A stretch of 64,000 nucleotides of DNA from positions 1,664,001 to 1,728,000 of the forward strand of contig OY759974.1 of NCBI GenBank assembly GCA_963662945.1. The letters are read 5' to 3'. The stretch comes from Arcobacteraceae bacterium. Its GTDB lineage: Bacteria > Campylobacterota > Campylobacteria > Campylobacterales > Arcobacteraceae. The notes under the pieces were generated by a model. It did no database searches. It had not been told where the DNA came from and worked only from the letters and a program-made list of their open reading frames with translations. Each line of letters opens with the position of its first letter. Position 1 is the stretch's first letter. Positions 22,035-32,003 of the stretch are shown piece after piece. The translations under genes were made by a program, and so were the position numbers.

Positions 22035-22778
22035 TTACACATATAACCCACCGTTTACTTTTAGTATCTCACCTGTAATATAACTTGAATGATCACTTAG
22101 TAAAAATGCAACTGCATCTGCAACTTCTTTCGCTTCACCAAATCTTCCTAATGGAATATTCTTTTCATAATTTTCTTTAACTTCAGGTTTAAGTTCATCT
22201 GTCATATCTGTTCTAATAAATCCAGGAGTTACAACGTTAAATCTAATTGCACGAGCACTACCTTCTTTTGCAAAAGCTTTCGTCATAGTATTTACACCAC
22301 CTTTAGATGCAGAATAATTTGTTTGTCCAGGATTACCCATTTCTCCAACAATTGAAGAGATGTTTACAACAGCACCAAATTTTTTCTTTGACATTATTTT
22401 GAGGGCATCTCTACATCCAATAAATGTAGATTTTAAGTTTGCATTGATTACATCATCAAAGTCTTCTACACTCATTCTAATAGCTAGTTTATCTTTAGTA
22501 ATTCCAGCATTATTTACAAGATAAGATAATGCACCATCAGCTTCTACTATAGTTTTAATCATATCAGCCCAGTCAGCTTCAACTGAAACATCACCTTTAA
22601 TAACAGCAGCAGTACCACCATTAGATTCAATAGCTTCTTTTACAGCATCAGCAAGTTCAGGTTTACTTCTGTAGTTAATCCATACTTTTAAACCATAAGA
22701 TGCTAATTCTTTTGCAACTTCAGCTCCAATACCTTTACTCGCACCTGTTACTAATACATTTGTCCCGCTAAATTTCAT
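22035..22778 (-). CDS. fabG: 3-oxoacyl-ACP reductase
   Basis: TGASKGIG, NNAGIT, YSASK, fab operon context. Confidence 0.96.
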   Translation of the reverse strand: MKFSGTNVLVTGASKGIGAEVAKELASYGLKVWINYRSKPELADAVKEAIESNGGTAAVIKGDVSVEADWADMIKTIVEADGALSYLVNNAGITKDKLAIRMSVEDFDDVINANLKSTFIGCRDALKIMSKKKFGAVVNISSIVGEMGNPGQTNYSASKGGVNTMTKAFAKEGSARAIRFNVVTPGFIRTDMTDELKPEVKENYEKNIPLGRFGEAKEVADAVAFLLSDHSSYITGEILKVNGGLYV

Positions 22779-22850: not shown

Positions 22851-23654
22851 CTATTCTGCTTTTCTTATTCTCAAAAAACTAGCAAATTTAGGTTTACCAT
22901 TTTTTGTAAAACCATAATATTTAAAAGTAATTGTATCTCCAATTGCTGGTGGATTTATTCTTTGATTATTACTCAATCCACCACCTAAATTAAAGTTTAT
23001 ATTGTTATCTAGTTTAACTTGTAAACTTTTTATTATATGTGTGCCATTTTTATAGTTATATCCTATAACAATTCCTTCCATATCTTGAAATTTTTTTACT
23101 TTGAGAATATAAGGACTTCTTCCTGTATGATAAGGTTGATTAGGATCTTTGATAATAACTCCTTCCCCTTTTAAAGTAATAACTTTATCAAGGTATTCTT
23201 GAAGATGTTGTTCATCTTTACAGAGATATTGAGGAATGATTTTTACATATTTGTTTGGATGTTGTGTAAACCATTGTTTGGCTTTTTCTAATCTTTGAAG
23301 AAAAGTACCACGTGTATTTGGAACTTCAAAAATATTAAAAGTAATTTTTTGCCAGTCTTTTGTTGGAGTATTGTCTAAAACTGTAGTTTGAATAAATTCA
23401 AAATCATTGTGTTTACTCCATAATTCTCCATCTAAAGCAAAGGGTGGAAAATTTTTAAGAAATTCTTTTGGAGCGTTGATTGTATTGCCATTTTTTGTAG
23501 AGAGTTTTTTTCCATCCCAATATCCTCTGATGCCATCAAGTTTTTCACTCATAATCCAATCAGAGATATTTTGTTCTTTATATATTTTTGGTTTTTGTAC
23601 CTCAAATGAGTATACAAAACCAAAAAATAGAATAAGGATTAGAAAATATTTCAA
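22851..23654 (-). CDS. Minimal ATP-dependent DNA ligase (Lig E type) with N-terminal signal sequence
   Basis: SEKLDGIR motif I, LDGELW, EGVIIK, LKVKK, G.P.FASFLR.R; hydrophobic N-terminus. Confidence 0.9.
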   Translation of the reverse strand: MKYFLILILFFGFVYSFEVQKPKIYKEQNISDWIMSEKLDGIRGYWDGKKLSTKNGNTINAPKEFLKNFPPFALDGELWSKHNDFEFIQTTVLDNTPTKDWQKITFNIFEVPNTRGTFLQRLEKAKQWFTQHPNKYVKIIPQYLCKDEQHLQEYLDKVITLKGEGVIIKDPNQPYHTGRSPYILKVKKFQDMEGIVIGYNYKNGTHIIKSLQVKLDNNINFNLGGGLSNNQRINPPAIGDTITFKYYGFTKNGKPKFASFLRIRKAE

Positions 23655-23660
23655 AAAATT

Positions 23661-24533
23661 TTAGTCTAAATATCTTTGGGTTAGCCCTGAATAATTTTCA
23701 ATTCTTCTATCGCGTAAAAAAGGCCACCATCTTCGTACATTTTCACTTCTTTTTAAATCAACATCACAATAGAGTATCTCTTCATTTTGATGATTCGCAT
23801 GTGCTAAATATTCTCCCTGAGGTCCAAAAACAAATGAATTTCCCCAAAACTTTGTTCCTTCTAATACTCTAGAATCATCAATTTCAAATCCAACACGGTT
23901 TACTGTAGCAACTGGTATTCCATTTGCTACACTATGACCTCTTTGTATTGCTATCCAAGCATCAAGTTGTCTTTGTTTTTCCTCTTCTTCATCTGCTTCA
24001 AACCAACCTATTGCAGTTGGATAGATAAGCATTTCGGCCCCTTTTAATGCCATGAGTCGTGCAGCTTCAGGATACCATTGATCCCAACATACAAGAACAC
24101 CAAGTTTCCCTACACTTGTTTGGATAGGTTCAAATCCTAAATCTCCAGGGGTAAAATAAAATTTTTCATAAAAACCAGGATCATCTGGTATATGCATCTT
24201 TCTGTATTTACCTGCAATTGAGCCATCTTTTTCAAAGACAACGGCAGTATTGTGATATAATCCTGCTGCTCTTTTTTCAAAAAGTGATGTTACTAAAACA
24301 ATAGTATTCTTTTTTGCAATTTGACTCCAAAATTGAATATCTTCTTCCCAAGAATTTGCTAAATCAAACACATTTACATTTTCATTTTGACAAAAATAGT
24401 GAGTTTGGTGTAATTCTTGTAAAATAACAAGTTGACTACCATTTTTACTAGCTTCTTCTATTTTTGAAACGGTAACTTTGATTGTTTCCTCTTTTGTTCC
24501 ATAATATTTTTGTTGAATTAGTGCTATTTTCAT
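23661..24533 (-). CDS. aguB: N-carbamoylputrescine amidohydrolase (carbon-nitrogen hydrolase)
   Basis: LQEL, YRKMHIPDDPGFYEKFYF, VCWDQWYPE; next to agmatine deiminase. Confidence 0.88.
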   Translation of the reverse strand: MKIALIQQKYYGTKEETIKVTVSKIEEASKNGSQLVILQELHQTHYFCQNENVNVFDLANSWEEDIQFWSQIAKKNTIVLVTSLFEKRAAGLYHNTAVVFEKDGSIAGKYRKMHIPDDPGFYEKFYFTPGDLGFEPIQTSVGKLGVLVCWDQWYPEAARLMALKGAEMLIYPTAIGWFEADEEEEKQRQLDAWIAIQRGHSVANGIPVATVNRVGFEIDDSRVLEGTKFWGNSFVFGPQGEYLAHANHQNEEILYCDVDLKRSENVRRWWPFLRDRRIENYSGLTQRYLD

Positions 24534-24534
24534 A

Positions 24535-25539
24535 TTATTTATCCTTTAATTTAGGGTATTGCATCGTAACACAATGTAAACTACCATGTTGTCGTATAAG
24601 TGTACTACAATCAATACCTATAATATCTCTTTTTGGGAATGATTTTTTAAATATTTTTAGAGCTTCATCGTCATTTTTGTCATTATAAGTTGGTACTAAA
24701 ACTGCACCATTTATAATAAGAAAGTTAGCATAAGTTGCAGGAAGTCTATCCTCTTCATCATATTTTGCTTCTATCCAAGGAAGAGGGATAAGTTTAAAGG
24801 GTTTTCCATTTAATTGTCTAAAACCTTTTAACTCCGCTTCCATTTTTTTCAAATCTTCATAATGACTATCTTGTGTATCATCACAAGTTTGATACATAAT
24901 AGTATCATTTGAGATAAATCTAGCTAGAGTGTCGATATGGCTATCTGTATCATCACCTTCTAAAGCACCACTATTAAGCCATAAAACTTTTTTTGCTCCA
25001 AGATATTGTATAAGTTTTTTTTCTATTTGTTTTTGAGTGAGTTTTGGATTTCTATTTTCTTCTAATAAACAAGCAGATGTAGTCATAATAATATCTTCAC
25101 CATTGCTTTCAATAGCACCACCCTCTAGCACAAATGGGATAGTTTTATGAGAGTATCCTTTAAATATACCTTTAAGTTTGAGTTTTCTTGTGATTTGATT
25201 ATCTTTATCTGATTCAAATTTCTTTCCCCAAGCGTTGAAGGTAAAATCTTCGATTATCAGTTCCCCATCCTGTTCAATTGTTATTCCACCAAAATCTCTT
25301 GACCAAGTATCATTGCTGTCTAAAGTTATAAAAGTTAAATTCTTTTTTTTAGGAAATCTTTTTTTTATCTCTTCTAAATTTTTTGATACTATAAGTACTT
25401 TTTGGTATTTATGTATAGCATTGGCAATATTTACAAAAGTATCTATTGCATCATCAAGATATTCACACCAATCTGTATTTTCATGAGGAAATACGAGTTG
25501 TACAAACTCTTGTTCTTCCCATTCTGCTGGTAATCTCAT
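24535..25539 (-). CDS. aguA: Agmatine deiminase family protein
   Basis: MRLPAEWE (ATG 25539), DTWSRD, LEGG, DTDSHID, GSLHCVT. Confidence 0.9.
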   Translation of the reverse strand: MRLPAEWEEQEFVQLVFPHENTDWCEYLDDAIDTFVNIANAIHKYQKVLIVSKNLEEIKKRFPKKKNLTFITLDSNDTWSRDFGGITIEQDGELIIEDFTFNAWGKKFESDKDNQITRKLKLKGIFKGYSHKTIPFVLEGGAIESNGEDIIMTTSACLLEENRNPKLTQKQIEKKLIQYLGAKKVLWLNSGALEGDDTDSHIDTLARFISNDTIMYQTCDDTQDSHYEDLKKMEAELKGFRQLNGKPFKLIPLPWIEAKYDEEDRLPATYANFLIINGAVLVPTYNDKNDDEALKIFKKSFPKRDIIGIDCSTLIRQHGSLHCVTMQYPKLKDK

Positions 25540-25540
25540 A

Positions 25541-26095
25541 TTAGTGCTCTCCACGTAAAAAATTTTTTGCTTCTTTTTCATTATTTTTCAAAGTTGTAAA
25601 TCCTGTTCCAAATCCAACCTCTTTTTCACCATTTTTCATTTTTGTTTTTTCCATTACTTTTTCTAATCTCTCTTTTCTTTGTGCATTTCTGATTTGAATC
25701 TCAGCTTGAGTAAATTTTCTCTCTTTTGCTGGGACTGCTTTTTGAATAGCATCCAGACTATTAAGATTGGACAATATTGAAAAAAGTTCATAAGGATTTC
25801 TCACTTTAAAAATATAGGTATCATTTTTAAGTTTATCATAGAAGTCTATCTCAAAATCTTTTTCCAATGATATAATAGCCCCAATAGTATTGAATTTTAC
25901 TTCTATTTTATCAGAGATAGCGTAAATACTACCATTTTTTGAAGTATAATAATTCTCATCACTTTTTGCTTTGTAGATGTTATCCCTATCAAAATATTTT
26001 TCATAACAAATTATTTCATTGGAGCTTTTATCTTTAAAACAATAATTAGCATATAAAGATGAAAAACCAAATAATATAATAAAAAATATTTTCAT
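25541..26095 (-). CDS. Hypothetical exported protein
   Basis: Signal peptide MKIFFIILFGFSSLYA; in operon order with its neighbours. Confidence 0.65.
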   Translation of the reverse strand: MKIFFIILFGFSSLYANYCFKDKSSNEIICYEKYFDRDNIYKAKSDENYYTSKNGSIYAISDKIEVKFNTIGAIISLEKDFEIDFYDKLKNDTYIFKVRNPYELFSILSNLNSLDAIQKAVPAKERKFTQAEIQIRNAQRKERLEKVMEKTKMKNGEKEVGFGTGFTTLKNNEKEAKNFLRGEH

Positions 26096-26098
26096 ATT

Positions 26099-26692
26099 TT
26101 ATCCTTGATTATCTTGTAATAAATTGTCAAGTATTTTGCATTTATAACAGTTATGACATCTTTTTTTCTTAATTGGATTGGTACAAGAGAATACAGAATT
26201 TAGAGGAATATCAAAATTGTTTTTTAAAATAGTTTGTTTATTCATTCCATAAAAAGGTGTTTCTATTGTAAATTTTGTTCTTAATCCTTGAGATATAAGT
26301 TTTGCACAACCCTGAATATATTCTAAACTTGTATCCGGATACTTGTCATTTCCTTGTAGTCCTATTGCAATTTTACAAACATTTATATTAAAAAAATGTA
26401 TTGCAGTAAAAGTGAATAAAGATAAGTTTCTCAAAGGTATAATATTTTGTTCGACATTTGTTACTTTTCCTAATTGAGAAACATGCAGTATTTTGGAATA
26501 GTCTAAAGTTTTTAATTTGAGTTTATAAAATTTTGCAATTTTTTTAGCATACAATAGTTCAGTTTCTTCCCATATATAGCCAAATTTAATATATATAAGA
26601 TGTATTGTGAAGTTTTGCTTTTTGTAGTGATTTATTAAAGAAGTACTTTCTAATCCACCACTAAATAATACTCCTATTTTACTTTGGTCCAC
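26099..26692 (-). CDS. Divergent QueC-family (7-cyano-7-deazaguanine synthase-like) PP-loop protein
   Basis: FSGGLES PP-loop, IPLRN, YPD, PF...NK, C-terminal SC-x8-CxxCxxC zinc site; 197 aa. Confidence 0.85.
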   Translation of the reverse strand: MDQSKIGVLFSGGLESTSLINHYKKQNFTIHLIYIKFGYIWEETELLYAKKIAKFYKLKLKTLDYSKILHVSQLGKVTNVEQNIIPLRNLSLFTFTAIHFFNINVCKIAIGLQGNDKYPDTSLEYIQGCAKLISQGLRTKFTIETPFYGMNKQTILKNNFDIPLNSVFSCTNPIKKKRCHNCYKCKILDNLLQDNQG

Positions 26693-27492
26693 TGTAATAA
26701 TTCCATTGAAGATGTAAGCCCAACTGTTACTATATGAGCAATTTTTCGTGATATCTGTTCTTGATCTATATTATTAAATAAAAATTCTTCATTTGTAAGA
26801 TATTTTATATCAAACCACCAATAACCATCTCTTAAAGATAACCTATCACCTTCGCTATTTTCACTACCTGATAGATTTAGCGTATTTTCAAATTTATTAT
26901 TTACTTCTTCTTTTGTTGTTTGTAACAGTTTATGGTCAATTGCAATTGCAGTTGCAATAAAAGAACCGGAATGCCAAATACTAAAAAGTATTTTTTCATT
27001 TTGATTTATTGTATATGTAATGTATAAACTATCTACACCATCTACTATAAATGTATTCAGATTATCAATATTTATTTTATGGGTTTTATTATTTTTTTTG
27101 AACTCTTTAGTATATTGAGTGAGCTCCTGTATCTCTTTTGTATAGAGTTTATCAGGAAAGTTATATCTATACTCAAATACTAACTTTACTCTTTCAATTG
27201 TTTTATTATAAAACTTTTCTCTAAGTTTTTTTATAGTTGTATCAGAATCCCCTTTTAAGATGAAAAAAATAGCAAAAATAATTATAGATATAATCAAAGA
27301 TTCCCATAAAAAACTTAAGATTGAAACATAATTAGCTTCAAGAGTAGATAGGTTTGAAAGGAAATAGAGTTCTTTATGAACTACTATTAATAAAATTGCA
27401 GATAATGCAAAAATAATATATATAACGAAAATCCAAGAAAGCTTCCAAGCTCTTTTAGATAAAGCTTGCAATAACTCTGAAGTAAATTCCAT
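26674..27492 (-). CDS. Hypothetical membrane protein: two N-terminal TM helices plus a soluble domain of about 200 aa
   Basis: Two hydrophobic segments in the first 70 aa; starts 2 nt after the yhhQ stop and overlaps the QueC paralogue. Confidence 0.75.
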   Translation of the reverse strand: MEFTSELLQALSKRAWKLSWIFVIYIIFALSAILLIVVHKELYFLSNLSTLEANYVSILSFLWESLIISIIIFAIFFILKGDSDTTIKKLREKFYNKTIERVKLVFEYRYNFPDKLYTKEIQELTQYTKEFKKNNKTHKINIDNLNTFIVDGVDSLYITYTINQNEKILFSIWHSGSFIATAIAIDHKLLQTTKEEVNNKFENTLNLSGSENSEGDRLSLRDGYWWFDIKYLTNEEFLFNNIDQEQISRKIAHIVTVGLTSSMELLQWTKVK

Positions 27493-27494
27493 AA

Positions 27495-28046
27495 TTAGAT
27501 ATTCTTATATGTGAGTCGTTTTACTCTTATAGCTACTAGATAGAATATAGGTGTATCTAATAGTGCTAAAGTAAGCTTTATTAAATAATCTCCAATAATT
27601 AATTTTACAATTACATCAAATGGAAGTATAAAACTAAACGCAATCATGAAAAATAAAACTGTATCAAAAAATGATGAAAACATTGTGCTTGCATTATTTC
27701 GTAGCCACCATAGATTTGTAAATTTTTCTTTCAAAAAATGAAATACTTTTACATCAAGTTGTTGTATTACGTAAAATGTAAAAATAGAGGCGAATGCAAT
27801 TCTCCAATCGGCTATTAGTATAGTTGGTATAACAGCTAATATAATACCAATTTTTACTACTTTTAAAACATCTTGTTTTTCATATTTTTCACTTAAAATA
27901 TCTGTTAATAAAAAAGTGAAAGGAAATAATAATGCACCATAAGTTAACCAATCGTTGATTGGAAATTGTACTGTATAATTTGCAATAACTATAAGTAAAG
28001 CAAAAATAATAGCTGAGGTATATTGTGTTTTTTTAGTCATTTGCAT
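27495..28046 (-). CDS. yhhQ: Queuosine precursor transporter (YhhQ/VUT family)
   Basis: ANY.VQ, TYG...FP.TFLLTD, RIAFAS, Q.LD..VF, WWLRNNAST..S...DT..F. Confidence 0.9.
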   Translation of the reverse strand: MQMTKKTQYTSAIIFALLIVIANYTVQFPINDWLTYGALLFPFTFLLTDILSEKYEKQDVLKVVKIGIILAVIPTILIADWRIAFASIFTFYVIQQLDVKVFHFLKEKFTNLWWLRNNASTMFSSFFDTVLFFMIAFSFILPFDVIVKLIIGDYLIKLTLALLDTPIFYLVAIRVKRLTYKNI

Positions 28047-28157
28047 AAATTACCTTATGTTTGTATTTAAATCACATTTTATCCAATTTATAATTAAAAA
28101 ATAACACTAGTGTATTATACTAATGAGCAATAAAATATAAATTTATAAAATTTCAAA

Positions 28158-28475
28158 ATGAAACAGACAATAGAAGAATTTAAACGATTAGTAGAACAAC
28201 AAAAATTTTATGAAGCTCATGAGATACTTGAAGAGGTTTGGTTTCCTATTAGGAAAACAAAAAATGATTGTGCATTGGTGTTAAAAGGTTTTATAAATGG
28301 AGCTGTTTCTCTAGAGCTAAATAAAAGAACAAAAACAGAACAAAGTAAAAATGTTTATCAAACATATAGAAAATATACCGATAATCATAGAATAGAAACT
28401 ACTAAGAATAAAAAAAATTTTTTACAGCTGAAAAAATTTATGGATAGAAAGTTTAAAGAGAACTTTATAAACTAG
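28158..28475 (+). CDS. DUF309 family protein
   Basis: FYEAHEILEEVW and KG.I..AV signature. Confidence 0.85.
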   Translation: MKQTIEEFKRLVEQQKFYEAHEILEEVWFPIRKTKNDCALVLKGFINGAVSLELNKRTKTEQSKNVYQTYRKYTDNHRIETTKNKKNFLQLKKFMDRKFKENFIN

Positions 28476-28956
28476 CCCAAATCATTCTTAAATATAGCCC
28501 AATTGTGGAAGTATAACCAACTTCACTAAAAAGAAGATTTCTATTTTTATCATATATAAAAGTTGTAGGATATGCAGAGATATTATATTTTGAAGCATAG
28601 TGTTTGCCAAAATCATCTATCACTTTAAAAGAAAGATTATGTTCTTGTAGATAGGATTGAATTTCATCTTGAGTTCCAGAATCTACAGCTATAGTTATTA
28701 CTTCAAATTTTTTTGATAGAGTTTCTATATTTGAAGCTTCAATTTTACATATGGGACACCAAGTAGCCCAAAAGTGTATTAAGATAGGTTTATTCGCTGG
28801 AATATTATAGGTTTTACGGTCTAATAAAGTGATATTTTGGAATTCCAATTTATCTTTATTAAGACTAGTAGATTTATAATAGCTTATAATATTTGCTAAA
28901 ATTGTTATGGTAATTATAAATGTAATTATTTCTTTTAGATATTTTTTTAATTTCAA
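28465..28956 (-). CDS. TlpA-like membrane-anchored redoxin
   Basis: HFWATWCPIC, YPTT, N-terminal TM. Confidence 0.88.
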   Translation of the reverse strand: MKLKKYLKEIITFIITITILANIISYYKSTSLNKDKLEFQNITLLDRKTYNIPANKPILIHFWATWCPICKIEASNIETLSKKFEVITIAVDSGTQDEIQSYLQEHNLSFKVIDDFGKHYASKYNISAYPTTFIYDKNRNLLFSEVGYTSTIGLYLRMIWASL

Positions 28957-29630
28957 TGTGTTAAAGTTTCGTAAGGAATTTTATCAGTCTCACCTGCAAG
29001 TGCAAACCCTTTTAACCGTAATCTACAACTATCACATACCCCACATGCTTTATCTTCATTTTTATAACAACTCCAAGTGTATTCTAAAGGAACATTTAAT
29101 TCAATTGCTTTTTTTACAATTTGTTCTTTTGTCATATGAACAAGAGGGGTAATAATCTCTAGTTGAGTTTCTTTACGTGTTCCTTGATTCATAGCATTTT
29201 GCATCTTTTCTATAAATGTATCTGTACAATCAGGATACCCGCTGCTATCCTCTTGCACAACACCTATGTAGAGTGCAGTTGCTCCATGTTTTTCAGCAAT
29301 TGCTGTAGCGATACTTAGAAAAATACCATTTCTAAATGGTACATAAGTAATAGGAACACCATCTTCAATTCCATTTACAGGTACATCAATAGAATTATCA
29401 GTAAGTGCACTAGCACCAATTTGAGTAAAAAATGGGATATTTATCTCATATTTTTCTTTTACATTAAGTTCAATACAAATATTTCTAAATGCTTCTAACT
29501 CTTTGTGTTCTGTTCTTTGTCCATAATTAAAATGTACAGAAATAATCTCATATCCCTCATTTTGGGCAATATAAGAAGATAATGTTGAGTCCATTCCACC
29601 ACTTAATATACATACTGCTTTTTTATTCAT
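28953..29630 (-). CDS. queC: 7-cyano-7-deazaguanine synthase (canonical)
   Basis: LSGGMDS, YGQR, SALTD, TYVPFRN, GYPDC, TWSCY...CGVCDSC..R. Confidence 0.97.
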   Translation of the reverse strand: MNKKAVCILSGGMDSTLSSYIAQNEGYEIISVHFNYGQRTEHKELEAFRNICIELNVKEKYEINIPFFTQIGASALTDNSIDVPVNGIEDGVPITYVPFRNGIFLSIATAIAEKHGATALYIGVVQEDSSGYPDCTDTFIEKMQNAMNQGTRKETQLEIITPLVHMTKEQIVKKAIELNVPLEYTWSCYKNEDKACGVCDSCRLRLKGFALAGETDKIPYETLTH

Positions 29631-29645
29631 ATCTTATTCTCGCTC

Positions 29646-30863
29646 CTAATTAAAAAAATCTTTTTGAACATCTGTATAAAACTTCCAATTAATTGGAATA
29701 ACTTTTACAATATCATCTTTAAGTAATCCTGTTAGGTTTTTATTGAGGATTATCATACTGTTGCATTTATGTAAAACCCCAACCATACCTGGAAATCTTT
29801 TTTTAGATGGGATAAAACAATCCCCATCAAACCAACCAGGAATAATAGTAGTTCTTCCTTTTTTATTTTTTAAATCTTCACTTATTTTTGTAGTGATGTA
29901 GTTGTGATAAATATCTTTACTACCAGAGAGTTTTTGAATGATAATAGTTCCAAATACTTCAAAAATTAATGCAGCTGCAAGTGGATTTCCTGGAAGATTG
30001 AGTATATATGTGTCTCCTAATTTTCCAAAAATAGTTGGTTTTCCTGGTTTAATAGTAACTCCATTAAAAAGTATATCCATCTCAAATTTTTCAAAAGCTT
30101 CTTGTGTAAAATCAGCTTCACCAACACTGATTCCACCAGTTGTAATGATAAAATCGGCATGTAAAGAGTTTTCAATCATTTGTTGTAAAGATTCAATATT
30201 GTCCTGTGCCATACCTGCAAAACTTACATCACAACCAAGCTCATTAACCCTTGAAAGAATAGTTGGAGTATTTGAATTAAATATTTGATAATCTTCTATT
30301 TTTTCATAATGAAGTTTTAATTCTTCACCACTAGTAAAAACACTTACTTTTGGTTTTCTGTATACTTTTACGTGAGTTATCCCTTGTGAAGCTAAAATAG
30401 TTATTGCAGAAAAATTAATTTCATCTCCATCAACGAGAATTTTTTCATCTTTTAGTATATCTTCACCTACAAATCGAATATGTTGATTTTTTTCGATTCC
30501 TCTTGGAATTCTAATATGTTGTTCATCGATTATGTCAACAAGTTCAAAAGGTACAACAGCTTCCACACTTGAAGGTATTCTGGCACCTGTCATTATTTTA
30601 ATACATTGTGTAGGTTCTATTTGGGTTTCTTTTGGTGAACCTGCAAAAATATCGTCACATATTTTTACAATTTCACCCTCATCACAAAGTTTGACTCCAT
30701 ATCCATCCATAGCAGAATTGTTAAAAGATGGTAAAGAATATTTTGCATAGATGTCTTGAGCTATAATTTTTTTATTACTATTTTCTATTGGTACTATTTC
30801 GTAAGAGATTTTTGTAATATTTGATTTTATTATTCGAAGAGCTTCTTTGATACATATACCCAT
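29646..30863 (-). CDS. moeA: Molybdopterin molybdenumtransferase
   Basis: NSAMDGY, IMTGA, SGEEL, TTGGISVG..DF, IKPGKP, LPGNP. Confidence 0.95.
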   Translation of the reverse strand: MGICIKEALRIIKSNITKISYEIVPIENSNKKIIAQDIYAKYSLPSFNNSAMDGYGVKLCDEGEIVKICDDIFAGSPKETQIEPTQCIKIMTGARIPSSVEAVVPFELVDIIDEQHIRIPRGIEKNQHIRFVGEDILKDEKILVDGDEINFSAITILASQGITHVKVYRKPKVSVFTSGEELKLHYEKIEDYQIFNSNTPTILSRVNELGCDVSFAGMAQDNIESLQQMIENSLHADFIITTGGISVGEADFTQEAFEKFEMDILFNGVTIKPGKPTIFGKLGDTYILNLPGNPLAAALIFEVFGTIIIQKLSGSKDIYHNYITTKISEDLKNKKGRTTIIPGWFDGDCFIPSKKRFPGMVGVLHKCNSMIILNKNLTGLLKDDIVKVIPINWKFYTDVQKDFFN

Positions 30864-30925
30864 TCTGTCGTTCCTTAATTTTTATATGATATAATAGCAA
30901 AAATTTTCATATAGGTATATTATAA

Positions 30926-31330
30926 ATGGATTTCGTATCAATCTCAATCACAACACATGTGTATGCAATAGTGGCTTTAATGCTCATAATGGTTTTTAAT
31001 TTTTATAGTGTAATGAGAATGAAAGATTTTATAAGTTTAACTCAACGGTTACGATTTATGACACCTATATTTCATATGGCAAATGCTTTTGTAGTGTACA
31101 CAGGAGCTATTGTTGCTGCTTATTCTCATGATTTAAGTCTTACAGTTATCTTGATGATTGCAACTTCAATTTTTGTGATGGTTTTAGAGATAAAAAGATA
31201 TAAAAAAATGAAGTTTATTAAGTCTACACAAATTGCAAAACAACAAGAATTTGTAATGTTTGCTAAAAAAATATATAATCTTGAAATTATAGCAGTTTTA
31301 TTTACATATACAATTTCAAAAATCTTCTAA
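30926..31330 (+). CDS. Hypothetical 4-TM membrane protein
   Basis: Hydrophobic ORF with RBS, coupled to rsmE. Confidence 0.7.
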   Translation: MDFVSISITTHVYAIVALMLIMVFNFYSVMRMKDFISLTQRLRFMTPIFHMANAFVVYTGAIVAAYSHDLSLTVILMIATSIFVMVLEIKRYKKMKFIKSTQIAKQQEFVMFAKKIYNLEIIAVLFTYTISKIF

Positions 31331-31331
31331 A

Positions 31332-32003
31332 ATGCAATTTACATATTCAGAAGAAGCTTCACAACCAACTATTACAATAGAAGCAGAGCTTCATAAATAT
31401 CTATTTAAGGTGCGAAGACATAATATTGAAGATGATTTATATTTTAGAAATTTAAAAGATAAAAATCTTTATAGATATAAAGTGGAAACTATAGATAGAA
31501 GAAAAACTACCCTTAAACTTATTGATTATGAAGAAAAAATAATTGAGCCTACAAAAGAACTTCATATTGGTTGGTGTGTGATTGATCCAAAATCAGTAGA
31601 AAAATATATAGCTTCTTTAAATGAATTGGGTGTAACAAAAATCACATTTATAATGTGTCAATATTCTCAAAAACAATACAAAGAAAACTTTGATAAGTTA
31701 GAAAAACTACTTATAAACTCATCAAGCCAATGTGGCAGAAGTAGTATTATAGAACTTGATAGCTGTAAAAATTTAGATACTTTTTTAGAAAAATATCCAA
31801 ACTCTTATATGTTTAATTTTTCACAAAATAACATTGTAGAATACAAAAATAATATAGATACAATTGTTTTAGGGTGTGAAGGTGGTTTTTCAAAAAATGA
31901 AATTGAAAGATTGCAAGAAGATAAAATCGTTGGTATCGATTCAAATTTGATTCTTCGAAGTGAAACAGCGGCTCTTACTTTGGCTTCCGTTCTTTTGAGT
32001 TAA
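31332..32003 (+). CDS. rsmE: 16S rRNA m3U1498 methyltransferase
   Basis: ELGV, SSQCGR, GCEGGFS, ILRSETA. Confidence 0.93.
   Translation: MQFTYSEEASQPTITIEAELHKYLFKVRRHNIEDDLYFRNLKDKNLYRYKVETIDRRKTTLKLIDYEEKIIEPTKELHIGWCVIDPKSVEKYIASLNELGVTKITFIMCQYSQKQYKENFDKLEKLLINSSSQCGRSSIIELDSCKNLDTFLEKYPNSYMFNFSQNNIVEYKNNIDTIVLGCEGGFSKNEIERLQEDKIVGIDSNLILRSETAALTLASVLLS

Follow-up and report, generated by a model that had tools for sequence, protein, structure and literature searches.

A rare and conserved gene pair in Campylobacterales couples a minimal QueC-family enzyme with a two-helix membrane protein at a queuosine-precursor locus

In a stretch of 64,000 nt from an Arcobacteraceae genome (the window; all nucleotide positions given below are window coordinates unless another contig is named), yhhQ, a gene for a queuosine-precursor transporter, is followed on the minus strand by two overlapping genes that we call TM272 and QueC2. 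TM272 encodes a protein with two transmembrane (TM) helices, and QueC2 encodes a divergent QueC-family PP-loop enzyme in a genome that also carries a canonical queC. The TM272-QueC2 pair is real, conserved and rare, and a literature search found no published description of it; the main text of PMC13329287, in the portion available to us, does not mention YhhQ, a transporter or a membrane in any relevant way. Our reading, which we hold tentatively and put somewhat short of an even chance, is that the pair is a salvage-linked, ligase-only QueC enzyme with a membrane-anchored partner of chaperone fold. Papers are cited here by PMC number or DOI, and what we take from them extends to the portions available to us. 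The features that the argument uses are as follows.

27495-28046, minus strand: yhhQ, queuosine-precursor transporter of the QPTR family, 183 aa; PF02592 111 bits, TIGR00697 127.1 bits
26674-27492, minus strand: TM272, two-TM protein, 272 aa; no family match, recognised from a predicted model and homologues
26099-26692, minus strand: QueC2, minimal QueC-family PP-loop enzyme, 197 aa, GTG start; PF06508 90 bits
26674-26692, minus strand: 19 nt shared out of frame by the 3' end of TM272 and the 5' end of QueC2 (GTG start)
28953-29630, minus strand: canonical queC (context, outside the pair), 225 aa; PF06508 253.5 bits, TIGR00364 208.6 bits
28047-28157, minus strand: intergenic region 5' of yhhQ, probable operon start; no recognised riboswitch

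QueC2 lies immediately 3' of TM272 in every locus that contains the junction (7/7). The two genes overlap by 19 nt in all five loci of the window's own family (f1; the window's genome G000 and loci L003-L006) and by 16 nt in both loci of a second family of Campylobacterales (f10; L040 and L041), with a single candidate start codon in each, and an overlap of this kind would be consistent with translational coupling of TM272 to QueC2. Only 2 nt (27493-27494) separate yhhQ from TM272. Because the homologues are conserved and the gene order and overlap are repeated in other genomes, we consider the three open reading frames (ORFs) to be genuine genes and not chance ones. A preliminary description of this DNA, made from the sequence alone, had reported three minus-strand genes near an intact queC, the first two 2 nt apart and the last two overlapping by 19 nt, and the ORF listing agrees with it exactly; the motifs that it named are all legible in the translations (SGGLES, YPDT, four Cys, no YGQR and a length 28 aa shorter for QueC2, FSIWHSG and RDGYWWFD for TM272). 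It also called the QueC paralogue divergent, linked it to the two-TM protein and suggested looking at the neighbours of TM272 homologues, and here it was right: the paralogue, 26% identical to the genome's own QueC, was adjacent in all seven loci.

The TM272 family comprises 16 clusters at 90% identity. A profile search of 1.84 billion representatives returned 11 matches (50% identity level) of 51-291 aa, so there are no fused forms. The QueC2 family comprises 14 clusters at 46-100% identity, after which the next match falls to 33%; the two families are thus similar in smallness (16 and 14 clusters), and at least six cluster pairs have an equally long longest contig. The 33% match, P0031, was considered as a link to a wider subfamily and rejected, as it heads a large family of QueC proteins of ordinary length with 2,707 matches. 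Among species genomes, TM272 was found in 2/184 in f1 (G000, which is a single contig and 99.99% complete, and a contig-end fragment in G118) and in 2/11 in f10 (G257 and G331), and it also occurs on five metagenome contigs. Across an order-wide sample of 401 genomes, strong matches were restricted to G000, G257 and G331. G493, G504 and G511 gave weak profile matches (E 8e-5 to 4e-4, over 43-85 profile positions) that were not counted as members, and a pattern scan of the genome contigs found no TM272 relative.

In f1 the pair is always 3' of yhhQ (6/6 loci having upstream sequence). In G257, the pair is located between an HD-domain gene on the 5' side and an NMT1/THI5-like gene on the 3' side, and yhhQ is on a separate contig, flanked by hisG and a gene for an M20 peptidase. 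What is conserved is thus the TM272-QueC2 pair and not a triplet, and the inclusion of yhhQ in the unit, as first proposed, holds in f1 only. We noted that an NMT1/THI5-like periplasmic binding-protein gene follows the pair in both f10 genomes (L040 1935-2768; L041 1-885).

QueC2 matches TIGR00364 at 74.1 bits, which is under the equivalog cut-off of 150.3. Canonical QueC has the signature SGGxDS, YxQxHxxE, VPxRN, YPDC, a Lys, C(x)8CxxCxxC and Tyr189, and the E. coli variants Y35A, R99A, Y131A and Y189A are inactive (PMC13082051). In all 14 QueC2 members, S11-G12-G13, R88-N89, Y118-P119-D120, K152 and four Cys are invariant, and the latter form a zinc site of the C(x)8CxxCxxC type (C170/C179/C182/C185). 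The P-loop is SGGLES in 14/14, a conservative Asp-to-Glu change that retains both Ser and both Gly, while VPxRN has become IPLRN and YPDC has become YPDT (Cys to Thr). The YxQxHxxE motif is replaced by x-G-Y-x-W-E-x-x-E, in which the last Glu alone survives: position 35 is variable (F, Y, S or V), Gln37 is Tyr, and His39 is absent. The position of Tyr189 is Thr or Ala in 14/14, a loop is shorter by about 13 residues, and the C-terminal tail is gone. In Cap9, a QueC-family enzyme of type IV CBASS, Y115 and D117 hold the conjugated deazaguanine (10.1101/2025.04.06.647259), and Y118 and D120 of QueC2 align with them. From this residue pattern, binding of a deazaguanine carboxylate and ATP by QueC2 is probable, and synthesis of preQ0 is unlikely.

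The AlphaFold2 model of QueC2 is compact (mean predicted local distance difference test, pLDDT, 90.4), and it fits QueC 3bl5 (E 5.7e-13, TMq 0.79, root-mean-square deviation (rmsd) 4.8 Å) and Cap9 9nto_B (E 7.8e-12, TMt 0.82, rmsd 3.2 Å over 189 columns) about equally well. By sequence, phmmer places QueC2 much nearer to 3bl5 (E 1.1e-8) than to 9nto_B (E 0.011), neither NF041925 nor the PADLOC QatC model matched it at E <= 0.01, and the generic PADLOC 'QueC' model scores QueC2 at 92 bits and canonical QueC at 107.5 bits. On these model and sequence scores QueC2 is neither a Cap9 nor a QatC, and we read it as an independently derived minimal QueC.

In two anti-phage systems, a QueC paralogue has recently been shown to couple a nucleobase to a protein (PMC13082051, PMC13279940, 10.1101/2025.04.06.647259). 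Like QueC2, the Cap9 of Cap9-CdnD (PDB 9NTO) is a minimal QueC-family enzyme of ~190 aa with a PP-loop, a zinc site and the base-binding Tyr/Asp; it has no Tyr following the first zinc Cys, and its gene adjoins that of a dedicated partner. However, the sequence similarity is marginal, there is no CD-NTase, Cap10/TGT-like gene or defence island with QueC2, and the partner TM272 is a membrane protein with a predicted chaperone fold and without a flexible tail ending in glycine. Cap9 also retains the Gln of YxQ (PMC13082051), where QueC2 has Tyr. In QatABCD the QueC-family gene likewise comes straight after a partner gene of no known family, and the QatB-QatC pair alone is sufficient for function (PMC13279940). 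QatC differs in being ~400 aa long, with N- and C-terminal extensions, a remodelled active site, and qatA and qatD alongside, and QatB, unlike TM272, is all-helical with an MGTS N-terminus. Canonical QueC is the best sequence and structure match, sharing the fold, the PP-loop, the VPxRN-type Arg-Asn, YPD, the Lys and C(x)8CxxCxxC. QueC2 differs from it in the missing Gln37, His39 and Tyr189, in the P-loop Glu and in falling below the equivalog cut-off, and it never adjoins queD or queE.

That closeness to QueC allows another explanation, in which QueC2 would be a divergent preQ0 synthase in addition to canonical QueC, serving salvaged 7-carboxy-7-deazaguanine (CDG) or ADG as a back-up or as an isozyme close to the membrane, and TM272 would be a mere tether. 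QueC2 could even be the only QueC in G257 and at locus L005, because canonical QueC was not found in the former and there is none at the latter. However, G257 is 87% complete and the L005 contig is covered over 9.5 kb only. QueC2 lacks Tyr189 and varies at position 35, both of which are essential in E. coli QueC (PMC13082051), and its TIGR00364 score is under the cut-off for the function, so we regard a second synthase as quite improbable.

TM272 has no match in Pfam, NCBIfam, PADLOC or PHROGs. Its AlphaFold2 model (pLDDT 87.2) has two long helices followed by an alpha/beta domain (residues ~86-272). Residues 3-39 are predicted to be helical, and the hydrophobic stretches in the helices (~17-38 and 58-79) make an N-terminal membrane hairpin; the positive-inside rule suggests that both termini are cytoplasmic (N-in/C-in). 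The fold matches of residues 86-272 are Spa15 (Z 8.9), SycT (8.7), DR_1245 (8.6), 2plg (8.5), YbjN (8.4) and InvB (8.2), with alignments that cover 112-128 of 114-149 target residues. The type III secretion chaperone/YbjN superfamily accounts for 10 entries at Z 8.0-8.9 and for 27 of the top 50 rows, and an independent wide fold search gave 4h5b (Z 8.6) and 2plg (Z 8.5), although a Z near 8 is at the edge of the informative range. The model thus points to an alpha-beta-alpha sandwich of the type III secretion chaperone/YbjN fold. The small proteins of this group (the type III class I chaperones and the YbjN family: Spa15, SycT, InvB, YbjN, AmyR, DR_1245) superpose over almost their entire length on the TM272 domain. 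Unlike them, TM272 is membrane-anchored, has many invariant polar residues and has no sequence relation: none of 10 TM272 members matched the Pfam chaperone/YbjN families at E <= 1, and we saw no secretion-system context near TM272. The common fold does not show a common function.

MscS channels were the top Foldseek rows for the whole TM272 model and were rejected as long-helix artefacts (rmsd 22-28 Å). An ESM Atlas search with the cytoplasmic domain gave scores of 0.85-0.87, under the informative level. The preliminary description had pictured two TM helices joined to a ligand-binding domain as in other effectors; the two helices stand, but the soluble domain does not correspond to any known ligand-binding module and has instead the predicted chaperone/YbjN fold. 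Invariant residues include R91, Y95, R109, D154, Y160, E166, W173, H174, G176, N206, Y231, R249, H253 and others, all in the cytoplasmic part, and so many invariant polar residues would be unusual for a mere scaffold. The prediction of a TM272-QueC2 complex scored 0.00, and we draw nothing from it.

The genomes that carry the pair have an unusual queuosine-precursor background. G000 encodes TGT, QueF, QueA, QueH, QueC and one YhhQ. Searches of G000 for QueD and QueE with PF01242, TIGR03367 and TIGR04322 were all empty, and a tblastn search with the QueD and QueE of G032 gave a best E of only 1.6; a TIGR04349 match was rejected as QueE, the protein being NrdG activase. In f1, QueD is present in 164/184 genomes and YhhQ in 12/184, and QueD is missing in 11 of the 12 genomes with YhhQ versus 9 of the 172 without it. 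Within the window's genus (28 genomes), QueE is absent from exactly the six that have YhhQ. In f10, QueD occurs in 3/11 genomes and an intact YhhQ in 7/11, and none has both. All four species genomes with the pair (G000, G118, G257 and G331) lack a detectable QueD, whose gene is the first one dedicated to synthesis of the queuosine precursor. These genomes are relatives of one another, and we take the link to QueD loss as suggestive and not as a statistical result.

The YhhQ of the window is well above the cut-offs of both of its families (TIGR00697 127.1 versus 50.95 bits, PF02592 111 versus 27.2 bits), and it is predicted to transport precursor. It is the sole copy in G000 and the resident gene of the locus, as the orthologous position in G133, G115 and G138 has yhhQ without the pair. 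In these respects it is like the YhhQ/QPTR type of preQ0/preQ1 salvage: the gene is an ordinary member of its family, and its presence excludes queD and queE. Unlike that type, five f1 genomes with YhhQ (G000, G115, G133, G137 and G138) keep canonical QueC without QueD or QueE, and in f10 G283 has QueC without QueD, QueE not having been searched in G283. The QueC of G000 and that of G137 have every canonical motif intact. Retention of canonical QueC without queD or queE therefore suggests that its substrate, CDG or ADG, is imported. In known salvage configurations queD, queE and queC are lost together, and the retained-queC arrangement falls outside the salvage schemes in the available portions of PMC5372724 and PMC11130926, where an accessory QueC-like or membrane partner is likewise unmentioned.

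We compared the chromosomal stretch from moeA (29646-30863) to fabG (22035-22778) across loci L034, L036, L016, L021, L025, L026 and L006. The arrangements, with those of L005 and the window's genome, are as follows.

G032 and G011, moeA-fabG interval: QueC-QueD-QueE
G162, G065, G066 and G167, moeA-fabG interval: YhhQ only
G137, moeA-fabG interval: QueC-YhhQ
L006, moeA-fabG interval: QueC-YhhQ-TM272-QueC2
L005: YhhQ-TM272-QueC2 straight after MoeA
G000: MoeA-QueC-Trx-(DUF309)-YhhQ-TM272-QueC2-lipo184-AguA

At this one chromosomal locus, queD-queE or queC-queD-queE has been swapped for yhhQ in several lineages. The same-genus genomes G133, G115 and G138 have the order of G000 minus the pair, with YhhQ proteins 87-88% identical to that of G000. 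On a YhhQ tree of 17 rows, presence of the pair requires five changes, at least two of them forced by well-supported branches, and its clustering is no greater than with shuffled labels. Identity to G000 declines in parallel for YhhQ, TM272 and QueC2, from 81/73/62% in L003 to 60/59/47% in L006. This fits an old three-gene arrangement in f1 from which the pair has been lost repeatedly; gain by recombination is the alternative. Two fragments look like decaying remnants of an alternative precursor-supply state: one of yhhQ, interrupted by two stop codons, in a genome that has QueD (G228:C86:9937-10047), and one of a second QueC, interrupted by a stop codon, in another genome (G307:C156:2445-2837).

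Two facts tie the pair to 7-deazaguanine metabolism: it lies in a locus where yhhQ stands in for queD-queE, and it is found only in genomes without detectable queD. The link to deazaguanine drawn in the preliminary description is borne out by this history and restriction. The QueC2 substrate might nevertheless be something other than a 7-deazaguanine, and the link to queuosine salvage a by-product of shared genome ancestry. PF06508 also holds LarE, GMP-synthase-like and purine-salvage clusters (PMC13082051), the pair-bearing genomes are few and related so that the association with queD loss is perhaps not independent, and the f10 pair adjoins the gene for the NMT1/THI5-like binding protein. 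However, the Tyr, Asp and Arg that contact deazaguanine in Cap9 are invariant in QueC2 together with the QueC-type zinc motif, QueC and Cap9 are its nearest relatives by sequence and structure with the next matches far behind, and the pair is within the queuosine-precursor locus in all six f1 loci with upstream sequence. We consider a different substrate rather unlikely.

Under our preferred explanation, Campylobacterales without queD (in the window's lineage also without queE) would be unable to make CDG and would import precursors via YhhQ. A neofunctionalised QueC2 would bind a CDG-type base and ATP and form the acyl-adenylate, make no preQ0, and transfer the activated base to some amine that is not free ammonia, a ligase-only activity like that of Cap9. 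QueC2 and TM272 would be produced in fixed proportion, and TM272, membrane-anchored and with a chaperone fold of the dimer type, would hold QueC2 at the inner membrane face, where the base arrives, and either present the acceptor or be the acceptor itself. The analysis establishes the pairing, the conserved overlap, the history of the locus, the confinement to genomes without detectable queD, the residue pattern and the predicted folds; what QueC2 acts on, its ligase-only chemistry, its complex with TM272 and a role in salvage or homeostasis rather than in defence are what we infer.

Several observations weigh against this explanation. Known deazaguanylation substrates are defined by an N-terminal glycine, and in each of the 21 TM272 sequences aligned the initial Met precedes Glu, Asp or Ser; among them are five distant members (31-45% identity), whose first residues differ from one to another without any Gly2. 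Canonical QueC is present in three of the four pair-bearing genomes, which makes a metabolic need for a second enzyme less evident. Of the 12 f1 genomes with YhhQ, 11 lack the pair, so YhhQ alone is enough for most salvage genomes, and import of CDG by YhhQ is unreported in the available portions of PMC5372724 and PMC11130926. In G257 yhhQ does not adjoin the pair, and in G118 the pathway status is ambiguous, since a QueE match is present in an assembly of 480 contigs with 6% contamination. Only two YhhQ alignment columns track presence of the pair, and both are weak and variable; as no YhhQ residue follows the pair, a specific YhhQ-TM272 complex is unsupported. Finally, the sporadic distribution (2/184 and 2/11 genomes) is also compatible with a defence gene.

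A role in phage defence was the other half of the original suggestion, and we give it the following form: in a host that makes no CDG, this base would be present only when a phage with 7-deazaguanine DNA expresses queD/queE of its own; it would be conjugated by QueC2 to TM272, and the modified membrane protein would abort the infection. Two things keep this reading alive, the sporadic occurrence and the Cap9 and QatC precedents. In the available portions of the literature, the characterised QueC paralogues that lie beside a dedicated non-enzymatic partner (Cap9-CdnD and QatC-QatB) are defence enzyme-substrate pairs only; QueC2 is minimal and without Tyr189, both as in Cap9; the pair occurs only in genomes without detectable queD and is scattered on the YhhQ tree (five changes in 17 rows); and a two-TM protein is plausible as a membrane effector. 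The surroundings point the other way. The neighbours in G000 are fabG, a DNA ligase gene, aguA/aguB, a thioredoxin-like gene, queC, moeA and rsmE, all housekeeping, and the flanks in L006 are housekeeping likewise. A search for TM272 on plasmids, phages and viral contigs gave no match, and no PADLOC system model fits the pair: TM272 matches none, and QueC2 matches only the generic 'QueC' model, which canonical QueC fits better, with no match to QatC. There is no CD-NTase, KAP NTPase or TatD gene near the pair, and no second TGT-like (Cap10-like) gene in G000, whose single TGT gene is ~410 kb away. The pair also lies inside an operon without a terminator-like site, and TM272 has no N-terminal glycine. 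Housekeeping flanks, absence of mobile homologues and lack of a PADLOC fit argue against a classical defence island. We consider phage defence decidedly unlikely. A metabolite-triggered variant, in which phage CDG would be ligated by QueC2 to a non-glycine site on TM272 and so switch on an effector, seems to us a long shot; it would be a third independent protein-deazaguanylation system, with a pathway intermediate as the non-self signal. Overall, the divergence, the pairing and the deazaguanine link of the preliminary description survive, and yhhQ membership outside f1, a defence island, identity with QatC or Cap9 and a known ligand-binding domain are unsupported.

The module is somewhat AT-richer than its surroundings (GC 0.245-0.253 versus 0.29-0.33 in the flanks). 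The best promoter-like match in the scanned stretch is at 28141-28114, in a scan whose number of matches is at chance level (42 versus 40.5 in shuffles). An Rfam scan of 24000-32000 at E <= 1 found no family, and hence no preQ1 riboswitch. Only 3 nt 3' of QueC2 is a gene for a 184-aa protein with a hydrophobic N-terminus (25541-26095, minus strand) and nothing in Pfam, NCBIfam or PHROGs; a PADLOC Cas5fv match (E 8.6e-4) was taken as chance. This gene adjoins yhhQ in G133, G115, G138 and G128 with or without the pair, and is therefore not part of the module. Between queC and yhhQ, a DUF309 gene (28158-28475, plus strand) is convergent with a thioredoxin/AhpC-like gene (28465-28956, minus strand) with an 11-nt overlap, and both are syntenic in G133, G115 and G138. 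Further downstream, 22851-23654 (minus strand) encodes a small ATP-dependent DNA ligase (PF01068 and PF14743) whose N-terminus resembles a signal peptide, suggesting that this minimal ligase is exported.

The swap of queD-queE for yhhQ at one locus, with queC kept in several lineages, is a clean natural experiment in these bacteria. If our reading of TM272-QueC2 as a salvage-linked ligase with a membrane-anchored partner is true, the module would be a third, independently derived minimal QueC with its own dedicated partner, and also the first such QueC to lie in a salvage locus instead of a defence locus and the first whose partner is anchored in the membrane. With two genes and 469 residues in total, it is a compact system for asking what other uses the adenylation chemistry of QueC has been put to.

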